Origin: Flaccisagitta enflata
Taxonomy: Eukaryota
Assembly: GCA_965153355.1 (NCBI GenBank)
Contig: OZ231126.1
Coordinates: 28,644,001-28,708,000, forward strand
Length of the DNA: 64,000 nt
Reading direction: 5' to 3'
The notes beneath the pieces were generated by a model, which was not told the origin of the DNA, did no database searches, and saw nothing but the letters and a program-made list of their open reading frames with translations. Below are positions 1,038 through 60,792 of this stretch, one piece after another (position 1 is the stretch's first letter; each line of letters opens with the position of its first letter). The position numbers were made by a program, and so were the translations under genes.

Positions 1038-2821
1038 TTCTCTGTGTTATTGCAGGATGTTGAAAATTTCTATTAAGTAACTGTTATGTTGCATGTAGAA
1101 ATTAGTTAAGACCAACAATGAAGGTTTAGGGTCCATTGAGGCTCTATCTAAAGAGCTCAAAACGCTCAATATAGACTCAATCTTGATCAAAATCTCAACA
1201 TTTTTGGAAAGTTTTTATTGTTTATAACCAAATGAGTGGTACATTTCTTCTCACTCACTGTTATCCAATGCAGGGTAACTGTGGGGGAACAAATATACAA
1301 GTTGAGGGCCTTTAAGAGGTTCATCAAGGGCTTCAAATGACTCAAAATGACCCTAAAATAGTGAAAATCTTGTTATTTGTGGTCTGAAAGGCCTGCTTTG
1401 AGGTCTTAGGGGCCTTATCCTGGATGTCTGAGGCCTGAGTTGGGTCTTAGAGGCTGGAATAAGAGTGTGGGATGCCTGAGTCTGGTTTGAGAGGCCAGAA
1501 TTGGGGTCTAGGAGGCCTGATTTGGGGAATGAGGGGCTTTAATAATACTTATGGTCTAAGAGGCCTGACTACCGGTCTGAGAGGCCTGGGTTAGGATCTT
1601 AGAGGCCAAAAGTGGGGTCTCATAGACCTGATTTGGGGTCTGAGAGCTCTCTTTCGGCCTAGTTTAGGGTCTGGCAGGCCCTATTTGGGGTCCGAAGGGC
1701 TTCAATTAGGGTCGGAGGGTCTGATCTGAAAGGCCTGAGTTGGGTCTGAAAAGTCTGATATGGGGTCTGAGAGGCCTGATTTAGGATCGAAGAGGCTTGA
1801 TTTGGGGTCTGAGGGCCTGATTTTAGGTGGGGGGACAGAAACTGGAAACAGGTCGCCCAAGGGCAATATGTGGTCAGCGATACCCGTTGCCCTGCTTTGC
1901 ATGAATATGAATTGGAGTGAGAGGAAGCAGGGCAGCGGCCCCAAAGGGGACAAAGTCCTGTAAAACACAGGGGGACTTTCGTTCGTCCCTCCAGGCTCTC
2001 TCAGGCCTGAAATCTGCCCTCTCAGGCCTGAAGTCTACCCTCTCAAGCCTGAAATCTGCCCTATCAGGCTTTGAATCTGAGAGAGCAGATTGCAGGCTTG
2101 AGAGGGCAGATTTCAGGCCTGGGAGGGCAGATTTAAGGCCTGAGAGGGCAGATTTAAGGCCTGAGAGGGCAGATTTAAGACCTGAGAGGGCAGATTTCAG
2201 GCCTGAGAGGGTAGATTTAATGCTTGAAAGGACAGATTCAAGGCCTAAGAGGGCAGATTTCAGGCCTGAGGAGAAGATTTCAAGCCTAAGAGGGCGGATT
2301 TTAGGCCTGGGAGAGCCAAGGGGGGGACAAATGGATGGACAGATAGACGGATGGACGCACGGATGGACGCACGGATGGACGCACGGACGGACAAATGAAC
2401 AAAAGTCCCCTGTGTTCTACAGGACTTCGTCCCCTTCGGGACCGCTGCCCAAAAATCATCCTGTGTGAAATCAAAGGTCATCTGTCTGGCCTCTTAGACC
2501 TCAAATCAAGCCTCTCAGACCCCAAATAAGACCTTTCAGACCCCAATTCATATTCAAGCAAAGCAAGGCAACGGGTATCGCTGACCACATATTGCCCTTG
2601 GGCGACATGTTTCCAGTTTCTGTCCCCCCACCTAAAATCAGGCCCTCAGACCCCAAATCAAGCCTCTTCGATCCTAAATCAGGCCTCTCAGACCCCATAT
2701 CAGACATTTCAGACCCAACTCAGGCCTTTCAGATCAGACCCTTCAACCCTAGTTGAAGCCCTTCAGACGCCAAATAGGGCCTGCCAGACCCTAAACTAGG
2801 CCAAAACAGAGCCCAAATCAG

Positions 2822-3440
2822 CACTGCTCTCTGACAGAAGATTTGTGAAAAGAATGATATCACTCCGGGTTTTTCTGCATTTTTGTGTAGGTTATAGGAA
2901 TACAAATCAAGAACTATCCAGTGGAAAATCATCCTTAGAGCGCATTTTGAAAAAAAGTCAGAAATTTATAATTTTTAACTTCATTTTTTATAAAGAATTT
3001 TTCAATTTGATCTGACTCTTTTTTTAACAGCATATTGTTAATCCTGGTAAAATTCCCCTTCATTTGATAGGTCGCACTATATGGTTTTGATGAAAAATCA
3101 GATTTTCATATTTCAGGCCACCGCTGCATTTTTTGTAACGGTGGCTTAAAAAATGAAAACGTTATTTGTTTTTAAAACCATATAGTGCGACCTATCAAAT
3201 GAAAGGGAATTAGATCAGGATTGACAATATGCTGTCAAAAAATTAGTCAGACCAACCTGCAATATTATTCATGTATGATGAAGCTAAAAATCATAGATTT
3301 TGGACTTTTTTTCAAAATGCGCTCTAGGGATGATTTTCCACAGGGTAGTTCTTGATTTGTATGCCTATGACCTACACAAAAATGCAGAAAAAGCCGGAGT
3401 GATATCATTCTTGTCACAAATCCTCTGTCAGAAAGCAGTG
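2822..3440. mobile_element. Chapaev-like (CMC) foldback MITE, 619 bp, 4-bp TSD
   Basis: TCAG|CACTGCTCTCTGACAGA ... TCTGTCAGAAAGCAGTG|TCAG. The opposite arm of the foldback (~1625-1636) keeps the empty site with a single TCAG. Confidence 0.85.
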
Positions 3441-4743
3441 TCAGGTCCATGAGACCCCACTTTTGGCCTCTAAGACCCTAACCTAGGCCTCTCAGACCGG
3501 TAGTCAGGCCTCTTAGACCATATGTATTATTTAAGCCCCTCATTCCCCAAATCAGGCCTCCTAGACCCCAATTCTGGCCTCTCAAACCAGACTCAGGCAT
3601 CCCACACTCTTATTCCAGCCTCTAAGACCCAACTCAGGCCTCAGACACCCAGGATAAGGCCCCTAAGGCCTCAAAGCAGGCCTTTCAGACCACAAATAAC
3701 AAGATTTTTACTATTTTGGGGTCATTTTGAGTCATTTGAAGCCTCTTAAAGGCCCTCAAACTGTATATTTGTTCCCCGCAGTTACCCTGCATTGAATAAC
3801 AGTGAGTGAGTTTGATTATAAACAAAAACTTTCCAAAAATGTTGAGATTTTGATTAAGATTGAGTCTATATTGAGCGTTTTGAGCTCTTTAGATAGAGCC
3901 TCAATGGACCCTAAACCTTCATTGTTGGTCTTAACTAATTTCTACATGCAACATAACAGTTACTTAATAGAAATTTTCAACATCCTGCAATAACACAGAG
4001 AAAAACAAGCAAATCTCTTAAATTGGTAGATTTTAGATTTTTTGTATTTTTGGATCCTCTTTAACAAAGCCTTGGAGGATCTAAAGGGGCCAACATATTT
4101 ATTTTTTTCTAAATTTGATATACTACTTCAAAATATCTTCCAAATGAGACCATTCAGAGGCCTGCAGGTTTATCCATTAGGCAATTATAGGTAAAACAAG
4201 GGTGTTTATGTAAAATATGAAATGCTACATCAACTTGTACCACCGTATCAACTTTGGCAAGTCATAACGAGGTTGTTTTTTGATTTTTGATATTTTTTTC
4301 GTTTACAACATTACTTAGCGTTCTTAAACATTCTTTTACGTTTTTCAAGCATTTTTTAACATTTACTAACATTCTTCAAAATTTTTTGACATTTTTTAAC
4401 ATTTCTTAACATTTTTTAACATTTTGACATTTTGTGTTATTATATAGGACGAGGCACGCGAATGTTGCCCTCTTGGGCCATGTTGTTCCTCACAAGAAAA
4501 AATGGCCTAGTCGCGTTCAGAACGCGGACGTTAGCGCGTTCACGTGACGGAGAAAAGTGGACACAAGGAAAATCACGTTTCAACAATTAGACTCTATCAA
4601 GATTTGTCTTATGCAATTCTATCTGCTCTACGAAGGCTAACGCTATCACCCTCAAAAAAAGTTTAAATTTTCGCGTTTTGTAAACAAAAAGGCAAGCGAA
4701 AAGGTTTTTGGAATTAGGTAAAAATTGAAAACAACTTGCATAT

Positions 4744-43131: not shown

Positions 43132-46053
43132 TCTTTATTGGACTAAGCGAATATCAGCCTGCACAGTTGAGCTTGAGGCCGGGTGGGTAGGCCGGAGGCC
43201 TATCTAGCAGATTTGAGGCCTTGAGGGCTGCTTTGACGTCTTGGAGGGCCAAACTTAGGCCTGAGTGCTGAATTGAGGCCCCAAAAGCAAGACGGGGGGG
43301 GGGGGTGAAAGAACAGACGTAGGAAATTCAACCCTGTGTCCTTCTGGACATCGGCCCTTTTGACCGCCACCCAAAAAGACGGACAGTCAGACAGAAACAA
43401 GACCAGGGGCAGTGTTTAAAGTCACTAGAGTATTTGGGCAGGAGCAGTGAGGCCAAAGACCGTACACTGAAACAGGTCGCCTGAAAGTAATCTGTGGTCA
43501 GTGATACTATGCTTTGCATGATTGTGAATTGGAATGCGAGTAGGCAGGGCAGCGGCCCCAAAAGTGTAGAAGTCCTGTAGAACACAGAGGGACTTTCGTT
43601 CTCCCTCCAGATTTTAGGCCTGAGAGGGCAGAAAAGAAGTTTAATAGTCACAAAAGCGTTAGATGGTCAGCGGTGCCTGTGCCCTGCTTAAGAAGGTTGT
43701 GGTTGAAGTTGAGGGGGGAGCAGGGCAGCGGCCCCCAAGGGGTCGATGACCTATGCTTTCATACATATGGGGAAATTTCTCCTTCTCCTTCTCCTCCTCC
43801 TCCTCACCCCCCTCCCCCCAGCCTCAAGGCCCATATCTCAGCCAGGAGGCCCATATCCCAGCCTCGAGGCCCAAATCCCAGTCTTGAGGCCCAAATCCCT
43901 AGAGACTGGAATTTGGGCCTTAGGGTTGGGATTTGGGCCTTAAGGGCGGGATTTGGGCCTCAAGACTGAGATTTGGGCCTCGAGGCTGGGAAATGGGCCT
44001 CCAGGCTGAGATATGGGCCTGGAGGCTGCGGGGAGGGGGGGTACGAAGAAGGAGGAGGAGAAGGAGAAAATTCCCCATATGTGTGAAAGCATAGGTCATC
44101 AACCTCTTCGGGGCCGCTGCCCAAAAGGGCTTATCATGGGCCTCAGGCTGAGAAGTCATAGATTAGGTTTGAAAGGCAGATTTCAGGCCTGAGAGGGCAG
44201 ATTGCAGTCCTGAGAGGGCGGATATCAGGCCAGAAAGGGTAGATTTCAGGCGAGAGAGGGCCGATATGAGGCCTGGGAGGGCAAATTATGGGCCTGAAAG
44301 GGCAGATTCCAGGTGTGACAGGGCATATTTAAGGTCTGAGAGGCTTGATGGGAGGGGGGAAATACTTAAGCTGCCTTATGTTGTACAGGACCTCGTCCCC
44401 TTTGGGACTGCTGCCCAGAAAGTGAATAGTCGCAAAAGCGTCAGATGGTCATCAGCGGTACCCGTGCCCTGCCTAAGTAAGTTGTGATTTGAGTTGAAGG
44501 AAGATGCAGGACAGTAGCCCCCGATGATGCATGCTTTCACACATGAGTAAATTTCTCCTTCTTCAAGCGGTTGGGATTTCGGCCACTTTTGGAATATGAT
44601 TTAGGAATTTAGGTCTAAGAGTTGGGATTAGGGCCTTGGGGCTGGGATTTTAGCCTTGAGGCCAGGGGAGGGGGGTGGACGACGAAAAGGAGCGGGACAA
44701 ATTTCCTCATGTGTGAAAGCATTGGTCATTAGAATGGGCACAAGTTGGGAATTTGAATGAAACATAATTTCCAAGCACTTTTCTTGTTCCTTTTGCATGT
44801 TAAGAGCCCAATCTCTTTGGAAAATCGATTTGGGCTTGATCTAGACACTCCGTCACTAATGCTGTAGTTGTATAGATTTGATTGCTGGAGTCAGGAGAAA
44901 AATTTCTTCCATAGTAATGCTATGCAACTACAGCATTGATGACGGAGTGCCTAGATCATGTCCAAATCGATTTTCCAAAGAGATTTGGCACTTAATATGC
45001 AAATGGAACATGAAAAGTGCTTGGAAATAATAATTCATTCAATTGCCCAAATTGAGCCCACTCTATTGGTCATCTGCACCCTTGGGTTTACCATCGACGA
45101 AGAGGAACAGAAGCAAATTGACTCAATGATCAATTCGATGATGCTATTTCTTTAGATCAAACTAAAAACCCTATTCCCGCTATTTTATGTTGGAAGGTTC
45201 GTCAAAGAAAGAGTGAAGTTGCCAAAAAGCTGGTTGATGCGCCAGTGCCCTCCATCACAGCATGGGAAAATTTACATTCATAAGCGGAAGTCCGACAGTA
45301 CGTGTCTATGCCCCTTATGATTGATGTTCCCTCAATCAAACATATACAGTAGATCTCGTCTAGACTTGAGATAACGGGGGCGAGCATTGTAGGAAAACAA
45401 ATAAAGCTAGGAGAGTGATATTTCAAACATAGACTAATAATGGGATGCTTTATTGCCCATGATAGCTGGTTGCCATGGAAACACATTTCTAAGTATTCTC
45501 GCTAAAGTATCAATATTTTGAGAGATTTTTTTAGGGAACATTGCTTAAAATAAAATTTGCTACAACTTTCCCACAGTATGTTCTGTAAAAATGTCGCTCG
45601 TTTAGCGGTTGCTAAGGGTTGTCACACATGGAAACGCTCTCTAGCAACGGCCAAACGAGCGACATTCTTACAGAACATACTGTAGGAAAATTGTAGCAAA
45701 TTTTATTTTAAGCAATGTTCCCTAAAAAAATTTCTCAAAATATTGATACTTTAGCGAGAATACATGGAAATGTGTTTCCATGGCAACCAGCTATCATGGG
45801 GAATTAAGTATCCTTTGATTAGTCTATGATCTAAATATCGCTCCCCTGCCTTCATTCGTCTTTCCACAATGCTTGCCCCCGTTATCTCAAGTCTAGATGA
45901 GATCTACTGTATAGTAATTCGTACAAATCAGCGCGAAGGTTGGCATCAAATCAGCGTCCATCAAGGCAGGAGATATACTATTAGCAAGGCAGGAATATTC
46001 AGAGAAGTAAAGCAAGCAAAGCCAAAGGGAAAAATGTAAACACATACAAGAGG

Positions 46054-46334: not shown

Positions 46335-49300
46335 TCCACAGTCGCCTATTGAACGACAAGCAAAAGTTCTAGAACAAAAGATTCCTGTTATCAACAATGA
46401 GGTATTCTCCCCAGGAATAATTGTTCATGTTTCAATTTTGAAAGCTGTAGTTATTGTTTAAGTAAACGGATTTCGTGTTTACTAAGTTGAAAAAAGATTG
46501 AATCCCACGATCATTAGAGTATTCTCAATCTAAAGTTGTAGGTTCAGTAAAGCATTTGGTGATGGAAGGAAGAAAAGTGAAAAAAGGTATTTTTTGCTTC
46601 AAAGCTGCAATTTTTTAACCCAATGACGGTCTGCAAAGATCATGTTGGAATTGATTTTGCGAGTAGACTGGGCTCTAATTATGCATGTAGAACATGAAAA
46701 TCACTTGGAGTAAGAGATATTTTGAAATGGCCAAAATGAGCCCAGCCTAATGACTATGTATGCTTACTCATCATCCATGGAGTCTGCATCATCGCTGACG
46801 ATTTCTTTAGAGATGGCGGTTCCCTCGTCATTAACGGCCAGCCCCCCATGTACGGCCATAAATCTCCGGTACGTCTTCTTGTAAGTTGAGTCATTGTAGA
46901 ATTTCTTTCTCAAAGAGGCGCGATCTTCACTGAAAAACGAAATGGGAAATTATTTTTAAAAATGGCAGTATGACGTAATAGTGCATCGCACAACAACAAC
47001 TACGATTACTACTATAACAACAACAATACCAACAACATCAACAACCAAAACAACAACAACAACAAGATGAGCTTACAGGTGCTCGGCTTCAGCCTTTATC
47101 TTCCTTTCCTCCTGCTCATTGCCGCCTTTCACTTTGACTGCCATCCAATTTGCGTAATGTTTTCGTTGGTTCTCCTTTATGTCTCTGGTGAGATTGGCCA
47201 CTTCTTCAATGTCGTGTTTGTTCAACTTTTGTCTGGCTTTGACCTCGGCCAGTCTCAGTTTCATGGCCGTCTGGAGCTTGGTGTAATTGGCTCCGTTTTT
47301 GCCCAGTCTGTCCATAATGAAATTGGTTTATGCTTGTATAATCATTGCACTGGGTTCGCAAATAATGATTGCGTCGAAACTTAATTCATGCCTTCAAAAC
47401 TTACCGGTCCCGAATTAGGCACGAAATCGGAATTTCTGCCATTTTGTTAGGCCATTGGAACACCGGGAACCCTGTCCTTCTCAACGCATGCTGGTTGACG
47501 CCGAAGAAGAACTCCCAGTAGGTGGGCTGAGTAGGCGCAAAATGACAATCCTTGTGGAACAAAGCGTCCTGAAGTAGAAATAGTAGATAACAAAATGGAT
47601 GAAACATGTGGGGATGCATGTGGGGAAAGCGCTGTACAACTCACAATAACACCACTACACCACTACGCGCCATCACTGACCTGGATGTTATGGAACAGGC
47701 GTTTGCAAGCGGCCAGGATGAATTCTTTCTCCGGCTTTTTCACGTTGTCCATGCCATGCTGAGATATAAATGGGAAATGTGGTTATATGATATCACCAAT
47801 TAGCAACGATATCACCAATTAGCAATGGAAACGCAAATTATTAAAACCATTCTCTAAGCGTGGAACTCACAGCTTTCGCGATTATCTCCAGCGCGACATC
47901 CAGCCCTTCGTCTTCTTCAATAAATTTCGTCAGACCACCTGATTTGGCCAAGAGCTCGAACTGTTCCTTACAAGTTAGCTCTCCTAATAGAAACAGGAAA
48001 TACAACAGATGTAATAAGTACCAATACAACGGTTTTAATTTGGAAGTCAGTAAGCAAGATAGATTTACAGTTGAGCTTCACTAGAGCGCATTTAACTATG
48101 AAATGTCTCATTAACAATAACTTGCATGCCTTTTAAGAGGTCATGCCTTATTGGCGGGTGCGCGAAAGTGAAGCTCAACTGTACCTGAGGACGCAGCTTG
48201 CAGTTGTTGAGGTACAAACGTCGCCGGGTTCCCATCTCCTTCGAGGTGCAGATCGCCCAGTGTGTTAAAGTGGTAAACGTCCCGGTCTTTGTCGTAGTAA
48301 CCCACGTTGCCACCGGAGGGACACCACAACTGGTCGTAGGGCAGAGCGGGAGGTTCTGGGTTTCCGTCAGGCCCAGGAAGCATTTCTGGCGGCTGCAGCC
48401 ACATTCGATGAGGGTTTTCAGGGTCTACTGCCGATCTATAGGCTGCTGGCGGCAACAGACTGGGATCTGTTTGGAGGGAATGAGGTAATTATTCAATTAC
48501 TCATTGTGTGTGATGGAAGATTGTTTGTCGAAATGAGACATGATTACTAGACGAGTTTAAATATAATTATTAAAGCAATTTCGAAGAATTGAGTACAAAC
48601 AATAAACTACTTTGGCCCAGTTTACAGAGTAGAAAATTAGCATCATTGGCACTAAAACAAAATAATAACTAACGTACCTCTTGTACAGGGTTTTTCACGC
48701 CAAAACGCCGATTACAAAACGACGTTTCTCAGCCCCTAGACATGATAATTGATTTCTGAAAAATGGTCTAAATAGTTCTTGAGCTCCGATTTTGTTATCT
48801 AAAATTGTGATGGTTTGATTTCTAGTGGTTTACCCGTCATAGATGAGTAAATAAATCCTCAGAATTTGGACAAGTGCCATTAAGTTATTACTTCGAGAAA
48901 GCAAAGCTTCGTCCTTGGGCCATATCAAAGCAATAATTCAGTCTAAATTTCAAATTGATTTAAATTAGTTACCTTTGGTAGAATATGTGAGCTGAAAAAA
49001 TACCATGCAGTTGCATAGTATTCCTTATTTGAAATTAAACTGTTCAAAGACGTTTTTCCCAGTGTTGCAGCTTCACATTGTGTTCTTCCTCCTTATGGTC
49101 CTTATATTGTTCCACCAGTAAGCTGGTTGGTCAGTCCGTTAGTTGGTAAAGCCTACTGTTTGTACTCAAACATCATTTTGGTAATCGTCAGCATTTTGAG
49201 CGTCTTCACCTTCGCCAGCTTGTGGAAGTTGATGGTTAGGGCGCTCCTCCATGATCTCATGGGGCCCATTTTCACCACCGAGTATCATCAACTTTGGAGA

Positions 49301-50297
49301 AGCACTGCTTCGAAATGAATGAGCTACAGACCTCGGGTTGGTCGCATTTTAAAGAGCAAAGAGAGATCTTTAAAATGGGACTAATCTGAGGTCTATAACT
49401 TTATTTGTTTAGAAGCAGTGGTCCTTTAAAGTTGATGCTTGTTTCACGGAGCAGAGTATTAATTTTTTTGAAATGGAAAAATTGAGTTCTTTAAAAAAAA
49501 ACTACTAATGGGTGAACGTCATGGATTCTAACCATAAACAAAGTCAACTGATAAAATCGGAGCTCACGAGTTGTACAAACCTTTTTTCAGAATTTAATTC
49601 TCATATCTAGCAGCTGTAAAATTTCGTTTTGTAATCGGCGTTTTGGCGTGAAAAACCCTGTAGCAAGGAAGCTATTCTTTGCCTCGGGATTCTTTTCCAA
49701 CATTATCTTCAAAGCAGTTGCGCTCATCCCATTGTTGGTTGCGATCTTTGCGATGCGGCGTTTCTTCATTTCCTGTTGACACTGATTGAAGATCCCTTGT
49801 GCTTCCGCGTCACCGATGCCTTCATCTTGGCCGCCGCCGATGTCAACTCCACCGTCGCCGATGTCGCCAACTTGGCCCCTTTCTCCTCCATCTTCCTCAC
49901 TCATGACTTCATCCTCAACCCTATCTTCGTCCTCCACCTCCTCCTGGACATTGTCACTGGTTCCAACGTCTGCACGCGACCGCTTAGTGCGGGTGAAGGC
50001 AGGCACATCTGCACCGTCGTCATCCTCTGGATGTGATGTTGGTCGTTTTCGTTGACGACGAGTTGTCCTAACGGCCTTACCACGTGACGGCGCCTCCTCC
50101 TCCATCTCCTCCTCCTCGCCGCTCTCTTCGTCCTGATGAGGATCACAGTTTGATCGACGTGATGTTTTCGAGGGTGGTTGATAGTCGTCGTCTTCCTCTT
50201 GAAGAAGTCTATCGCGATGGCGTTTGTTTCCACGCTGGCTGGCTCCGTATTTGGCGTTGGGACATTCTTTGTAAAAATTCGAACGTTTCGACGACAT
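39340..50297 (-). CDS. Element gene B: 16-exon ~1272-aa accessory protein (likely TnpA/ORF2 equivalent), exon 1 interrupted by a MITE in this copy
   Basis: Exons 50297-49661 plus 48683-48678 (MITE removed), 48466-48185, 47983-47871, 47758-47681, 47568-47405, 47307-47077, 46929-46768, 42741-42550, 42442-42194, 41881-41696, 41595-41482, 41391-41064, 40967-40749, 40623-40339, 40109-39823 and 39625-39340. All 15 introns are GT-AG with matching phases and there is no internal stop (3819 nt). The C-terminal AMSFLRMYHID...YWNFWEIYAFQI recalls the tail of ORF2/SAMD3-like proteins of animal EnSpm elements (from memory, not searched). Confidence 0.75.
44730..45065. mobile_element. Palindromic hAT-like MITE (336 bp)
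   Basis: 8-bp TSD TTGGTCAT on both sides; TAGAATGGGC ... GCCCACTCTA termini; arms complementary almost to the centre. Confidence 0.85.
45347..45909. mobile_element. Palindromic Tc1/mariner-type MITE (563 bp)
   Basis: TA|CAGTAGATCTCGTCTAGACTTGAGATAACGGGGGC ... GCCCCCGTTATCTCAAGTCTAGATGAGATCTACTG|TA; near-complete foldback. Confidence 0.85.
48686..49660. mobile_element. Tc1/mariner-type non-autonomous element (975 bp) inserted in exon 1 of gene B
   Basis: TA|CAGGGTTTTTCACGCCAAAACGCCGATTACAAAACG ... CGTTTTGTAATCGGCGTTTTGGCGTGAAAAACCCTG|TA. TA TSD; removing it restores the exon and donor GTACGT. Confidence 0.9.
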
Positions 50298-50311
50298 GTT
50301 TTAAGTTTATC

Positions 50312-52955
50312 CTAAGTCAAGTCCAAGTTCCTTACACTTATCACGTTTAATCTGTTTGATTCGTTGCATACGTGGTAATCTTGGACAAGAACGAGAGAAG
50401 GGACTAATAATTGCCGCTGAACACTTGAAGTTGATTCTCTTACTTTAAATATGCCCAATTCTGTAATTGGGAGAGCCGTTAACTTTTTGGAAAGGAGGAT
50501 TATGTCTGAGTCACTTTGGGCAATGCCTAGGATTCTGAAAAAACGCCCATCTGGCTCCCCATCTATATTGGGCAGGCCATAAACCGAGTTGAGGTGAAGC
50601 ATGTAACCGTTGTGCTCAACGGTTTTGAGGCACTCAGCCGCTCTATAGCCTTGATAAAAAGTTAAAGCTTCATGTGGTAAATCTTCTTCATTTGTTAAAC
50701 GACTAACCTTCCTTGGTTCAATGATTGCTTGACTGCGCGCATGTAGTTTCAAGTCAATTCTTCGGAGAATAGTGTATAGAACGTTCTTTGTGCAACGAGA
50801 GTTTCCAAAAGCTCTCTTGACGAACTGGTGGAATTGTTCGCATAATGAAGAACTCTGTAGGGACAAAGGGCCTGCCAACCGAATTGCTCTTGGGTAATGG
50901 CACAGATTATGCTCTTTATATTTTATTTTGGGATCATACTGTCCATCTGCGGTTCTGGTGAGACTCATCCTCAAAGTCAATGTAGTTACTATCGTTTCTT
51001 CCATTTCTTGTAAAGTCTCGTTTGTGTGGTTTAGAGTGAGAAGAAGTCGACTTAGATACAAGACTTGTAAATAGAAGACCCAAACAGGGTCAGCCGTGTT
51101 TCCAATGACCGGATAGAGTACAGTGCTGAACAGAAGAATAAATGTGCGCACGTGTGCGACTTTATTACATATACGGACTGTTTTCTTCGCCATGTCAAAC
51201 TTGAAATAAGGACGATTTTTTGAATCATGGCCACGGAATTTGAAACGTTTCCACAAACTTTTCATTGAGGAAGCAGAGATCCATTGTAAATCGAAAACGA
51301 TTCTATTAGTGATGATTGTCATCCAAGTTACTGCGCAGCCAAGGAAGAAGTCGTGGTGGAGATCTAATGAAAAGGTAGTCTTGTTCATGGGGAACCATGG
51401 AATGCGATGTAAAGCAGGCACATGAGTAAAGCCATACGGAAGCATTAAGTCATTTGCTTCTGCTGCAATGACATCAATATATTCTTCAGACGTACGCGGT
51501 GCAGCTGGTGCCATATCTTGCACAGAGTTAGGAGTTACTAAATCCGCCATACGGAAATGGCAATATCTACAGGATTTCCCACTTGTCCATGATCGTGTTA
51601 TCCCACAGAGTTGGTTTTGGCTCAGGTTATCGCCGATAACCATAAAGAATCTGACTTGATAGTGGTCACCGTTGTATGTAATGCCATTTGAGACAACATC
51701 TCTCAGTCGAGATACAATTGCCTCAGTTATGACCTTCAATCCCACTTCCCCCACATCTTTTGTGTAGAGTAGGCATAAAGGGAAAACTTGTTCCAACTTG
51801 CGTTGGTTTGGTCCTTCAATTAAGATAACTATATAAAAATTATATAACTTATAATTGGCGTTACGGGCATACAACGCCTGCAACGGTAAGACCTCATCAC
51901 AGTACAAGCCCAGAGGAATTACAGGTTCACCAGAGTGGATGGCAATGTCTCTAAATATTTCAGAATTTTTAATCGAATTGAACTGGCCGGCCGTGATGGG
52001 TTTCTGATGAAATTCTTTCAATCGATTGCAATTGTCTTTACTTTTCAACCATAATGTCAACATTTCGTCGATTTTGTAAAAATGCACTTGGACATTTTCG
52101 TCCAAAAGTATATCGTTTCTTATGGGAAGAGTTACACTTGCACGATAATTATTTTGTAATTGTTTCTGTTGTCTTCCACGACCATAACTGGTTCTGATTT
52201 GGTTCATGCGTTTTTTCTGTTGTTGTGATAAGTTACATTGCAGGGCATTGAGAATACTGATTGTTTGTGATACAACGTAGGAAATAAGACATTCCGTGGC
52301 AGCGTATGTATTCGTCATTTGGTGTACAGTTTCCTCCATTATTGTAATTACATGTTCTGGAATGATACCACCACCGCATCCACCACCACCGCCACCACCA
52401 CCACCACCACCACCACCATCACCACCACCACCACCACCACCATCACCACCACCACCAACACCACCACTTGAATTATTCTCACCAACATCCTCCCAATGAT
52501 GAAGAACAAAAACATCTCCCTCGTCATTGTCAACAACTTCATCATCCTCACTATCTTCTGAATCGGATTCCAATATATCATCGACGTCCTCCTCCCTCTC
52601 CTGCTCCTCTTTCCATAAAATATCACCTCGATCCCTGTGAAAGTCGAGATGTGGGACGCTTGTTGCGCAACGTTTATTTGTGAGAGCCTCATAGGGGCAT
52701 ATTTGGTGGCTTGGCTCAACAAATTGGTAGTGTAGTTTGAGTGCGTTATAGTTTTGTTGGTCAGTGTAAAAAGGCAGAGATTCCTGACACACAGGGCACT
52801 TGTATATGCGTCTATAGTGTTGGTCGACGTGGGTTTCAGCAGATACAAAGTCTGTCGTTGTTGTCCTCTTGTGGCAAAGGGCGCATACGGGCCTTCTTAC
52901 TTTGTTTTGACTTTTGAATAACAGTTTGTCAATGAGAGTCTGTCGTAGAGTCATT
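50312..52955 (-). CDS. EnSpm/CMC-type DDE transposase, main exon (~880 aa), with two N-terminal C2H2-like fingers
   Basis: Uninterrupted ORF. Motifs typical of animal EnSpm-like transposases: LGLYCDE, FFMVIGDNL..NQLCG....SGKSCRYC, DLHHDFFLG, KEHNLCHYP..I...GPL.....CEQFHQFVK. N-terminal CALCH..H..H and CPVC..H motifs and a poly-Gly linker. Acceptor ttttgctgaacAG lies directly before 52955, with ATG at 52954. Confidence 0.9.
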
Positions 52956-53093
52956 CTGTTCAGCAAAATTTGAAAAAAATTTGATGATACTTGTAAAAGC
53001 TAGTCTATTCTATTCTATTTCATTCTATTCTATCATATTTTATTTCACCCAGGCACGAGGTCAGTTCTAAAACAATTATTATATCACATTGTC

Positions 53094-53618
53094 ACATTGA
53101 CATCCACTCTACTGAACCTGTAATTGCAGTGGGCCTAATTGCCATATACAACTTGGACCAAATGTTCCTTTTGCCTCAACTTTACCCAAAAACATGCAGG
53201 GGAATCAGGGTCATTGCCGCCAATCTCTCGGCAAATAAAGTATCGGTGGACCAGTGGGAAATCCCAACATTCTTATATGTATAGCAAATGGCTTCATTCA
53301 TGTGCCTGCTTTCCAGGGCATTTCAAATTTCAACATGAACACGACTACCTTTTCATTGGATCTCAACCACAACTTCTTCCTTGTCTGTAAAGTATGTTGG
53401 ATGACTACCATTAACCCATGATTCAAATCGTCCTTATTTCCAGTTTTACATGTGGAAGAGAACAGTACGTATTTGCAATAAAGTCGCACACATGCGCACA
53501 TTTATTGTACTGTTCAGCACTTTACTTCATCCCAAAAAAGATACTGTCCGAATATTAATCATACATACATGATACAGACAGAGCAATTCGGCTGGCAGGC
53601 CCTTTGTCCCTACAAAGT
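53094..53618 (+). pseudogene. Inverted, internally deleted patchwork copy of the adjacent transposase CDS
   Basis: Plus-strand pieces translate to IDIHSTEPVIAVGL, VIAANLSANK, WTSGKS, GFIHVPAFQGISNFNMNTTTFSLDLNHNFFL, HDS-NRPYFQFYMWKRTVRICNKVAHMRTFIVLFSTLLHP and RAIRLAGPLSLQS. They are collinear with transposase 51948 to 50851. The last block differs at only 2 of 40 nt. Confidence 0.9.
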
Positions 53619-53792
53619 TTTTCATTTGGCGAATAATTTCATTTTACAGTTCTCAATGCACAAAGAACAATCAAGCAAGCAAGCAAGCAAGCAATCATTG
53701 ACTATGTTTTATGTAAAAACTGCTAATTGGTTAACAATAACCAACAGTGAATGAGAACAGGAATAAACAAGAGATGATGAAAAGTATACTAC

Positions 53793-54100
53793 CTATATCT
53801 TTTAAATCTGTAAGTTGTCTGTACTTGGTACTTATATCTGTTATCCAAACGTCGAATGATGAAATTGACGGCAGCAGCTACCGAAAAAAAATTAAAAAGT
53901 CGCGGAATAAACAACGACAATAGCCATTAACGGAGTGAAATCAGACAATTAATAAATGCAATCTAACCTCTAAAACCCGGATGTTCCCAAAGGCGATGTA
54001 ACGCTATTCCAACGCCACCATACGCCCCAATCAAAAAAAGCTCACGGAAGGAAAGTTCAACCACCATCTGGTGGCCACGGAAATTAAGGGACATGATCAT
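53793..54100 (-). CDS. Two small exons (54100-53968, 53877-53793): probable 5' exons of the transposase (giving 953 aa), or a separate 73-aa ORF
   Basis: Acceptor tttCAG lies 8 nt before ATG 54100. Translation MIMSLNFRGHQMVVELSFRELFLIGAYGGVGIALHRLWEHPGFR|AAAVNFIIRRLDNRYKYQVQTTYRFKRY with a phase-1 junction. Donor ag|GTAGTA (phase 2) matches the phase-2 acceptor at 52955; if unspliced it ends at TAG 53789-53791. Confidence 0.5.
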
Positions 54101-54160
54101 TGTTAAGTCTGAAAGCTAAAGCATAATAATAAGAATGCTAATAAGACGAACACCATATGT

Positions 54161-57100
54161 TTACAACGGAATGGGTGGCGGTTTTAACGAGCTAATTTGT
54201 GTGGTATTGGGAGGCGCCAATGAAACCGAGGAGTTGGACGCCATCACAGATGCTTGGGACGCGTTTTCAAAAAAAATCATTAAGTCCTGAGCGTCTTCTT
54301 CATATTTGGTCGCCGCCGATTTCTTCCCACCTCTTCCCCCCCTCGCCGACTTCCCTCCCCGCTTCCTTCCCCCCTCCCCCACCGCTGATTTCGCCGACGA
54401 TTTATTCGGAGTCGCAGTGGTCCCATGGGGTTTAGCAGTCGAAGTCGCCTTGTTTGGTGTTCTGGGTTTGGGAGGCCGACCCGCCAACTTCTTCTTTGCT
54501 TGTTTTGTGTCCTTTCCCGCATCACCCTCCTCATCGTCGTCATCCTCCACCACCTTAGCGGACAATCTTTTTTCTCGGGTAGAAAGACGAAACGATGCGC
54601 GTCTTTCATGGTCGTCGGCGAACCGGTATCCCGCGTCTGATTCCACCTCGTCGTCCATATCGTCTCCAACGCTGGGACGGCAAGAAGAAACGCTGGAAGT
54701 GCGAGAAGAGACGCTGGAAGAGCGAGAAGAACCGTTGGAACGCCGGGTCAACAACGTTGAGCCATCGTCGTCAACGAGAGGAATTTCCACCATGTCTGTA
54801 CCTAACGACAATGGTGAAACATTGATTAATACATTTTGTTTTTGTTTTGGTATTACATGGTGGACACAATAGTTTGTAGTCGTGCAAAATCTAATTAATG
54901 TTTTTATTTATCTTATCCGCGACTGAGGGAAGTTTGGGCAATACAATTTTTATATTGGGCACGACAACCATTCCATCGCACGCGTCATGTTCAATACAAC
55001 CATTGTATTGCGCAAGTCGTGCTGATTTAGACGATAGAATTGCACGAGTCGTGCTAAATACAACCATTGTATTGCGCAAGTCTTTCTGAGTAAAACGATA
55101 GTATTGCACGAGTGAATCAGCACGTCCATAACATGAACGTCTGATTAATAATTCTAACAATATAATTAGTAATTAATAATACTTAATAATTCATAATTCA
55201 TAATTCATAGTTCATAATTCATAATTCATAATTCATTATATTATCTTTATTGATACTGTCCTTGTTAGAATTATAAATTTTTAATGATTAATTATTACTT
55301 CTTAATTATCAATTATTAATTATTAATTATTAAATATTAATTATTAATATTAATTCTAAAATTTTAATTAGTAATTATTAATTATAAGTTGTTAATTGAT
55401 TATTAATTACTAAATTATCAATCATTAATTATTAGTTATTAATTATAAATTATTAATTATCAATTCTTAATTCTTTATTGTTGATTGATTAATTAATTAA
55501 TTATTGATTATGAATTATTAATTAATCAATAAACAACTAATAATTAAGAATTGATAATTAATAAGTAATAATTATTAATAAAAAATTAATAATTCTAACA
55601 ATGACAGTATCAATAATGATAATATTAATACTAGTAATAATAATACTTTTATTTACATGAGTAATGAGAGGCAAATGAGCACACCTGCTGCGTTCACAGG
55701 ATTTGTGAAATCCGGAAGCGGAGAGCAGGATCGCGAATTCTGAGGACGCGGAGGCGTAAGCGCAGGAGGAGTAGGCGCAGCAGACGTTGAAAGCGCAGGA
55801 AGCATAGGGTTAGGCGTAGGCGCAGGAGGTGTAGAAGGCGCATTATGTGGCGGCTGCGGAGTAAGAGATTCTGGTGGCTGAGTTTCAGTCGGGGAAGCCG
55901 TAGATGGCGGTGAGGAAGCGCGCGATGAATTGCGTGATGAGTTCAAGCTTAACAGCAGATTTGCGCTTGAGACATCTTGATTCGACAGATGCAACCTCGC
56001 CGGCCTCGACACCGCCTCACCCAACGGGACCGTAATTTGTAAGCCGTGATGATGTTCGGCGAAATGGGTTTGTAAAGCGGCGGCGTTGTCAAAATCGATG
56101 AGACATTTGTCACAACGGGCCTTTGACTGCCAATTTCCATTTTCGTCCAGTGCATTGGGGCCCATATTCGCCACGTCATGCGTAAGGGTCTCCACCTCTC
56201 TGTCATTGTCCTCGTCATTTCCTACGGTCGAGTTGTTTCCAGCGTTGCTACCACCGGAGGCACCCGCATCACCACCCGAATTTGACGCGGTAGAGGAGTC
56301 GTCGTCATTTCCTACGGGCGAGGTGGTTGCAGCGTTGCTACCACCCGAAGCACCCGAAGCACGAGGCGAAGTCGATGCGGTAGAGGAGTTTGGATCTATG
56401 TCGTCCGGGACTGATCTTAAAGAGTCATTGTCCTCGACGAAATTTTTTACGGGCGAGTTGTTTGCAGCGTTGGTACCACCGGAAGCATCGGAAGCGCCAT
56501 CTGAATTTGATGCGGTAGAGGTGTTTTGATCCATGGCACTGGGGACGTGGGTCCCAGCCGAAGTCGAAGTCGACGCGGTGGAGGTGTTTGGCTGAGTGAC
56601 GCTCGGGACGTTGCCACCACCTGTAGTTCCACCCGAAGTAGACGCAATAGAACCCGTCGTTGATAATGCTTGTCTCTGCACCGAGTCCACAATGAGGCGA
56701 GCTGTAGAACAGTGAGAAACATTTATATAAGAAATAACGAGTACAATTTTGTTTTTGTTAAAAACCGAGTTTGTAAGAACACCAAGGCTTTGAATCGCCC
56801 AAAAATTATGAACATCTTAAGAACATACAAAGGCTTAAAATCTTTAACCAAATTTGTGGGTAATGGTGATATTTAAAGAATCCTATGAAAACAGATGACT
56901 TGCATTATAATTTAGGTTAATATTACATATGTTGTACTAACATTGATCTAATATGCATATTGTCATTTTATGATGACTGGTCTTGTGTAACTTATTTGAT
57001 TAGAAAGACTATGAGTTTCTATTTACAATACAATGATAACTGCAACGTTTATATTGTGGAGTAATAAACGTAAATCTTTGTTTCATGGAAAACTTCACAA

Positions 57101-60542: not shown

Positions 60543-60792
60543 TAGTCGCGTGCTACGCGACTCTACACCCCGCTTTGTCGGTCCGTCGGTCCGTCGGTCC
60601 GTCGGTCCGTCGGTCCGTCGGTCCGTCGGTCCGTCGGTCCGTCGGTCCGTCGGTCCGTCCGTCCGTCACACTTTACTTTTTTGGCGTTAATGGGGTTTTT
60701 GGCCTTACTGCTCCTGCCCAAATGCTCCGTTGACCTCAATTATGGCCCCTGCCCACCCGCACGCGACTGGGGTAGCCGTGTATCCGGCCTTG
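60543..60792 (+). mobile_element. HINE/DINE-1-like short element, TAGTCGCG...GTATCCGGCCTTG family
   Basis: T-rich flanks, 5' palindrome AGTCGCGTGCTACGCGACT, (GTCC/GTCG)n tract and 3' GCCGTGTATCCGGCCTTGTT. Copies at ~5102-5243, 16758-16911, 17222-17357, 25608-25750, 27968-28128, 30885-31080 and 35644-35812. Confidence 0.65.

Follow-up and report, generated by a model that had tools for sequence, protein, structure and literature searches.

An old inverted partial copy of the transposase gene, probably a hitch-hiking relic, inside a CACTA/Mirage/Chapaev-like DNA transposon of Flaccisagitta enflata

The 64-kb stretch of Flaccisagitta enflata DNA analysed here (the window) contains a DNA transposon in which the transposase gene is preceded by an inverted partial copy of itself, riddled with deletions (hereafter, the patch), and the same arrangement occurs in other copies of the element. 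We think it reasonably probable that the patch is what remains of an old rearrangement, a relic that the master copy of the element has inherited and that has a latent hairpin potential; with similar confidence, we regard it as neutral or at most mildly self-limiting, and not as a module selected for pairing.

The patch occupies 53058-53701 on the plus strand and is colinear with transposase codons ~340-760 (51984-50718, minus strand), its plus strand being transposase-sense and its minus strand antisense. A gap-tolerant global alignment of the patch with the transposase arm gave 571 identical columns out of 682 (83.7%) in a single colinear block order and, together with blastn (best E 6e-30), defined seven blocks, A to G, with 73-94% identity to that arm (Table 1). 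An inverted-repeat search of 49000-55500 returned five inverted pairs, each linking part of 53094-53641 to the long minus-strand ORF. When 53000-53800 was compared by blastn with the whole 64-kb window, the four main blocks were matched at E 6e-30, 2e-27, 2e-14 and 1e-7, and all matches beyond 50700-52000 were at E 0.15 or worse. The inverted patchwork described in the initial annotation was recovered by all three methods (repeat search, blastn and global alignment), each of its pairings being reproduced within a few bases. The limits of the patch are nevertheless wider than those given there, with faint similarity starting at 53058, block F reaching 53641 and an additional block, G, beyond it.

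Table 1. Positions in the window of the transposon genes, the blocks of the patch and the inverted pairs
Feature	Position	Strand	Paired positions	Remarks
ORF0	54164-54796	minus		upstream of the transposase and co-oriented; ~210-aa basic, Ser-rich protein with a GRP(P/S)KPR motif
Spacer, transposase ATG to patch	52956-53057	none		TCTATT-type microsatellite at 53000-53045; public-run contigs break here
Transposase CDS	50312-52955	minus		ATG at 52955, stop TAG at 50314-50312
Transposase arm complementary to patch	50718-51984	minus		from blastn, global alignment and fold
ORF2 (P0002)	49587-50297	minus		starts 14 nt after the transposase stop
Block A	53091-53134	plus	51951-51908	36/44 identical; duplex -57.4 kcal/mol, z -11.3
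Block B	53149-53204	plus	51800-51746	small indels, ~80%; duplex z -7.0
Block C	53210-53264	plus	51640-51572	contains the second-Asp motif, GD changed to AA
Block D	53288-53411	plus	51435-51312	101/124 identical; duplex -149.7 kcal/mol, z -16.9
Block E	53415-53532	plus	51231-51111	86-87%; duplex -153.7 kcal/mol, z -23.1
Block F	53579-53641	plus	50891-50829	55/63 identical; sole 22-nt perfect run; stop codon directly after the retained catalytic Glu
Block G	53646-53700	plus	parts of 50828-50719	internal deletions, expanded (GCAA)n tract
Inverted pair	51312-51435		53288-53411	124 nt, 81%
Inverted pair	51111-51218		53425-53532	108 nt, 87%
Inverted pair	50829-50890		53580-53641	62 nt, 89%
Inverted pair	51908-51948		53094-53134	41 nt, 85%
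Inverted pair	51572-51589		53247-53264	18 nt, 94%

Relative to the ~1,267 nt of the transposase arm, the patch is compressed to 644 nt. Five gaps of 80-219 nt are each replaced by 3-46 nt of filler, and a search of the deletion junctions for clear microhomology found none. The segment around the first catalytic Asp (D368) is absent between blocks A and B, the second Asp motif has been altered, the reading frame shifts from block to block and a stop codon interrupts block F, all of which bears out the earlier statement that the patch is unable to encode a transposase. Colinear internal deletions, as in an internally deleted non-autonomous derivative, are present; that identity was rejected, as flanking termini of the patch's own were not found. 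The patch begins at codon ~340, ~100 nt from the ATG of the intact gene, and its far end runs, with no terminal repeat, into sequence common to other copies of the element (represented by the protein P0010, see below).

The source of the patch, an ORF of 895 codons (52999-50312; 880 codons from the ATG), is a real DDE transposase. In the encoded protein (P0001), C2H2-like fingers at the N terminus are accompanied by acidic and poly-Gly tracts and a DDE core (D368/D457/E721). A word-indexed search retrieved seven relatives at 52-97% identity, all of them unnamed ENA proteins, and a profile search of 1.84 billion representatives retrieved 2,219 (E 0.001 or better). An alignment of 42 sequences, a subset of these profile relatives, shows D368, D457, C477, C480, H549, D550, K695, H697, H701, Y702 and E721 to be invariant; the conserved D, D, E triad lies on an RNase H-like core, as in CMC transposases. 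An AlphaFold model built on this alignment had a mean pLDDT of 80.4, and its top matches among solved structures were RAG1 (E 1e-10), ProtoRAG and Transib (E 1e-10 to 3e-6), with the P-element transposase weaker. The RAG1/Transib fold gave the best structural matches of the predicted protein (TM 0.45-0.60, normalised to the target), whereas sequence identity was only 11-15%; judging from the model, this is probably a matter of the closest DDE fold solved so far, and not of shared family membership.

Pfam gave no match to P0001 at E 0.1 or better, and the close family did not match Transposase_21 (PF02992) or Plavaka (PF18759) even at E 10. Among the 42 distant relatives we found weak matches to Transposase_21 (2/42), Plavaka (1/42), DUF4218 (1/42) and zf-C2H2 (2/42), the first three at E 7e-5 to 6.5e-4, and the Atlas neighbours of the transposase include Plavaka clusters. 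The transposase likely represents a distant branch, lacking a Pfam model, near the CACTA/Mirage/Chapaev group; membership in that superfamily is likely and not proven, because the element termini were not found. The family as a whole, which has no Pfam model of its own, comprises more than 2,000 unannotated relatives.

Some variation within the gene is worth recording. The (GGT)n tract at 52366-52472, which encodes the poly-Gly stretch, differs in length among copies, and many family members in the databases (P0176, P0178, P0180, P0183, P0186 and P0187) are N-terminal fragments ending in frameshifts at this tract. The window's own transposase copy is drifting, 15 of the 19 listed coding differences from the contigs of other sequencing runs being non-synonymous.

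The window holds one copy of the element. In it, ORF0 and the transposase, two conserved genes with the same orientation, are separated by a 1.2-kb spacer that contains the patch. ORF0 has four clusters of homologues, at 93, 91, 59 and 53% identity, tiers that resemble those of the transposase; Pfam and Atlas assignments were sought for it and none was obtained. It is probably a second gene of the transposon. An ORF0 homologue (P0202) and one N-terminal transposase fragment (P0180) each come from a contig of 3,116 nt and, since this is the only length match among the members listed, the two probably reside on one contig. ORF0 and ORF2 were compared for kinship and are unrelated.

The last ~30-50 codons of ORF2 fall within a very high-copy short repeat. 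Two inverted copies of this ~115-nt unit (83%) are found at 49553-49667 and 48680-48793, one of them providing the final codons of ORF2; its contig depth in one public DNA run (X6, see below) is ~118,000, versus ~2,000 for the transposon, and it is probably a MITE- or SINE-like family.

We searched for terminal inverted repeats (CAC... termini) and a 2-3 bp target-site duplication of the element and did not find them. A 26-nt inverted match (43432-43457 and 60698-60723, 25/26) was considered as a pair of element ends and rejected, the surrounding sequence being unrelated; the two stretches are probably pieces of a different repeat family. Only one side of the element, immediately upstream of ORF0, carries four copies of ATTGCRCRAGT at 32-nt spacing (55007-55113), accompanied by GTCGTGC motifs in both orientations (54879-55113). 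From their sequence and arrangement, these repeats could be subterminal binding sites or promoter repeats. Farther out lie an AT-rich palindrome of ~390 nt (55134-55625), 77% self-complementary and built of 7- and 14-nt repeat units, and a 387-codon open frame (55653-56816, minus strand) rich in Ser, Thr, Ala and Gly, with one weak C2H2-like finger (E 0.058), which could be a host gene or a further gene of the element.

Public sequencing data allowed us to look for the patch outside the window. Twenty of the 24 runs listed, from 11 studies, contain part of the stretch, and contigs were compared from four of the 24: two metatranscriptomes (X12 and X16), one marine metagenome and one single-organism run. 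In both DNA runs (X1 and X6), which belong to different studies, one contig each joins the 5' coding region of the transposase, the spacer and the patch. The X1 contig (record 6) covers 52473-53658 with 18 differences at a depth of 20.9, versus 29.9 for the transposase contig; the X6 contig (record 31) covers 52473-53827 with 24 differences at a depth of 2027, versus 1852-2361 for the transposase contigs, contig depth being used solely as a within-run ratio, distinct from copy number. Because diverged transposase fragments in the same 1.18-Gb X6 run have depths of 78-122, the main form of the transposase must be many-fold repeated, and the patch equally abundant. Upstream of the patch the X6 depth is 1,700-3,600 as far as 54200, the end of the stretch compared. 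A total of 739 contigs were found in X6; as most belong to the microsatellite or to the very high-copy short repeat, their number was not taken as a measure of family size. Contig cover was missing from 50044-50687 in X6, from most of 52298-54200 (except the microsatellite bin) in X16 and beyond 53586 in X12. The same contigs revealed a form of the transposase gene that lacks 243 nt in frame (50969-51211), at a depth of 7.6 in X1 and 2329 in X6, the latter similar to that of the undeleted form; this is probably an abundant defective derivative.

Two proteins add to this picture. P0010 (106 aa, from a JGI metagenome contig) was the sole protein retrieved with the patch's 90-codon ORF. It matches 53604-53927 over three reading frames of the window, with 28 of 29 residues identical across the junction of the deletion between blocks F and G; its downstream flank is 83% identical over 47 residues (8 of 47 differ), with 13/13 at its end. 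By its sequence, P0010 represents a second, diverged copy with the same deletions and flank. The other protein, P0006, belongs to a sister subfamily and is 89% identical to the window's transposase. For 464 residues its sequence equals that of the full-length sibling P0173; the next 33 residues include 4 differences, and the protein ends in a frameshifted tail resembling block G (12/17 residues, the same deletions and a (GCAA)n tract). The block G deletions are thus found in the tails of both proteins. When JGI metagenome contigs were scanned with the transposase alignment and with P0010, no relative appeared; among ENA contigs no patch ORF was found, a result to which we attach no weight, as such short ORFs are rarely called.

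Taken together, depth, unbranched contigs and the two proteins suggest that the patch is present in most copies. The initial annotation had proposed to look for the patchwork in other copies, and had held its absence from them against a built-in module; it was found in them, and is indeed built into the repeated element. An event confined to the window locus, be it an inverted duplication that later decayed or a defective copy nested head-to-head, would agree with the single element copy in the window, and the pseudogene state and many deletions of the patch fit a dead fragment; nonetheless, the bridging contigs of two studies at transposase-like depth, the shared junction and flank of P0010 from another metagenome and the diverged patch-type tail of P0006 make such an event scarcely credible.

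P0006 itself is either a recombinant or gene-conversion product of a transposase and an inverted relic, or an assembly chimera; in either case, it requires a diverged patch-like sequence adjoining the transposase of that subfamily. It also bears on the idea that the patch serves as a recombination substrate, exchange or gene conversion with the transposase flipping the intervening segment or transferring the defects of the patch, so that truncated transposases result. The abrupt change in P0006, from identity with P0173 to clustered differences and a patch-type tail, is what such an exchange would leave. However, this is one protein on one contig and may be a chimera assembled through the shared block, and a strand-changing joint is absent from the contigs of the four runs; we regard this explanation as quite improbable.

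The patch is also old. The two arms diverge by 11-27% per block, while the window copy and the contigs of other runs differ by 0.5-1.8%, meaning that the patch is older than the latest spread of the element. In a tree computed on the 150 patch-covered columns, the patch diverges within the P0001/P0004/P0006 radiation, later than P0005 and P0007-P0009; its branch is long (0.50), and its placement has a support of no more than 46%.

The differences between the arms are evenly spread over codon positions 1, 2 and 3 (22/112, 13/114 and 18/113, respectively), and transversions account for 42 of the 68. Of the transitions, 17 would preserve a G:U pair in a minus-strand hairpin and 9 are of the opposite kind, a difference that is not significant, and there is one perfect complementary run of at least 20 nt. 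Where the window and the alleles of other runs differ within the patch, two changes go towards complementarity, two away from it and one neither way. This substitution pattern fits neutral decay, with no sign in the sequences of maintained pairing. The retained blocks correspond to transposase segments that are more conserved in the close family (0.843 vs 0.751), a value reached by 2 of 375 circular shifts; superfamily-wide, the same test is weaker (53/375). This excess hints, at most, at selection on what is kept.

In silico, the sequence has the potential to form a hairpin. Block by block, duplex energies lie between -45 and -154 kcal/mol (z -5.5 to -23 relative to dinucleotide shuffles). 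In the minimum free energy fold of a hypothetical 3,094-nt minus-strand RNA (53793 to 50700), 463 of the 644 patch bases pair with the transposase arm, and all seven blocks are paired to their cognates. The multi-stem pairing predicted for a minus-strand transcript was hence reproduced in silico, for seven blocks out of seven. An Rfam search of 49000-57000 gave no match at E 0.1 or better.

Regarding expression, contigs of the X12 metatranscriptome match the transposase (five pieces, 0-3 differences) as well as the patch (at a transposase-like depth of 3.3-4.0), while those of X16, where cover is low, lie on the transposase and not on the patch; depths in these RNA runs are 3-5, and the contigs are not strand-resolved and may stem from carried-over DNA. 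RNA-run contigs bridging both arms were absent from X12 and X16. The patch had been proposed to sit in an intron, and splice-like signals are indeed readable from the sequence, namely a donor-like AG|GTAGTA at 53793/53792 and an acceptor-like ...ttgctgaacag| at 52957/52956, the latter abutting the transposase ATG on the minus strand, within the spacer. The contigs of the four runs, however, contain no matching joint. The only joint in them is that of the 243-nt deletion variant (50968 to 51212, ends CC..GG), which was considered as an intron and rejected, being present in both DNA runs. A-to-I editing was rejected as well for the sites listed: six patch differences were listed for X12, three of them A>G, and since both DNA runs carry the same letters, they are alleles rather than edited sites.

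These data can be set against the possibility that the patch is a selected, built-in hairpin, by which the primary transcript forms double-stranded RNA with the transposase exon and thereby limits the element's own activity, through siRNAs or piRNAs, ADAR, or a block of splicing or translation. Its location in an amplified unit and in a second, diverged copy, the patch-type sequence in the sister subfamily, a position between co-oriented genes that makes a read-through pre-mRNA plausible, the pairing of all seven blocks, the conservation of the retained segments in the close family and the splice-like sequences on either side all speak for this. On the other hand, the arms are merely 73-94% alike, most of their differences are pair-breaking transversions with no significant excess of wobble-keeping transitions, half of the original length has been deleted, the conservation signal is not robust, splice joints and RNA-specific A>G changes are lacking and X16 covers the transposase with no contig on the patch (weak evidence, given the low cover). 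We consider a selected hairpin unlikely, though not negligibly so. Of the self-silencing module put forward in the initial annotation, what stands is that the patch is built in and that pairing is possible in silico; splicing, editing and maintained pairing found no support, and a silencing role as such is conceivable.

A bolder version is, if anything, a little more doubtful. It pictures an animal-type CACTA-like family in which an internal antisense pseudo-copy, located between two of the element's genes and predating the subfamily split, would fold onto the transposase exon within a single primary transcript, act as a cis brake (by double-stranded RNA processing or a splicing block) and also yield small RNAs against all copies, in other words a 'Mu killer' inside an autonomous element.

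According to the relic explanation that we favour, an inverted partial duplicate of the transposase gene would have become fixed long ago in the master copy of a CACTA/Mirage/Chapaev-like DNA transposon, having arisen by aberrant or alternative transposition, or by template switching during repair. These processes are known to make inverted transposon fragments. The patch would then have been copied along with the element while eroding, accumulating frameshifts and a stop and losing about half its length through many small deletions. As a consequence, a minus-strand primary transcript starting upstream of ORF0 would carry the patch, in antisense, ahead of the transposase exon and could fold into an imperfect multi-stem duplex of ~460 bp. 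Elements of the superfamily typically form a single, alternatively spliced transcription unit, and by analogy with Spm and SmTRC1, a minus-strand pre-mRNA running through the patch is plausible. Among the observations that weigh against a pure relic, a function would equally account for ~640 non-coding bases having outlasted a subfamily split, and the X12 contigs over the patch leave room for its transcription.

Known systems offer partial parallels. The arms of the maize locus Mu killer, with which the initial annotation compared the patch, are nearly identical to MuDR. Complementarity of that near-perfect kind is not found in the patch, with its 73-94% identity and its one run of at least 20 nt. 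Mu killer is a partial inverted duplication of a transposase gene from which read-through transcription can make a long hairpin RNA (PMC3440606). Both are thus inverted duplicates of transposase sequence. Mu killer, however, stands apart from the autonomous element at a locus of its own, where a flanking gene drives its transcription, whereas the patch belongs to the element that amplifies, has diverged by 11-27% and has lost about half of its length.

A plausible route for the origin of the patch is offered by alternative transposition of maize Ac/Ds, which generates composite insertions with inverted duplications of fractured fragments, transcribed into double-stranded RNA from the promoter of the element or a flanking one (bioRxiv 10.1101/2020.01.07.897926). 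Those insertions are recent, local and near-identical, and silence Ac; the patch is old, decayed and propagated with the element.

A single, alternatively spliced transcription unit makes up most of the element in Spm/En and in SmTRC1, a CACTA element of animals, and the portion of the source consulted does not mention an internal antisense transposase copy (PMC1636069). The element in the window resembles them in having several co-oriented ORFs and a distantly related transposase (Transposase_21 in 2 of 42 relatives), and differs in that its transposase has no Pfam match and CACTA termini were not found. A literature search, the sources being represented by excerpts, turned up Mu killer and the Ac composite insertions and no autonomous eukaryotic DNA transposon with an internal inverted transposase copy, which is no proof of absence.

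Fragments of transposons in inverted orientation are known to trigger silencing, but from loci that arose by accident outside the element; here such a fragment is part of the copied unit. In bacteria, the RNA-OUT of IS10/Tn10 is an element-encoded antisense RNA directed against the element's own transposase mRNA; it is short, perfectly complementary and overlapping, and its action has been proven experimentally. If the patch is active, it would share with RNA-OUT the principle of built-in self-limitation by element-encoded antisense, and the element would be a DNA transposon from a eukaryote that passes on an antisense regulator directed at its own transposase, a counterpart of the bacterial system and a natural test case for self-limitation versus host-triggered silencing. 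If it is inert, the patch would show that a sizeable rearrangement relic can ride through a transposition burst, and would serve as a warning against inferring function from foldable transposon structures.
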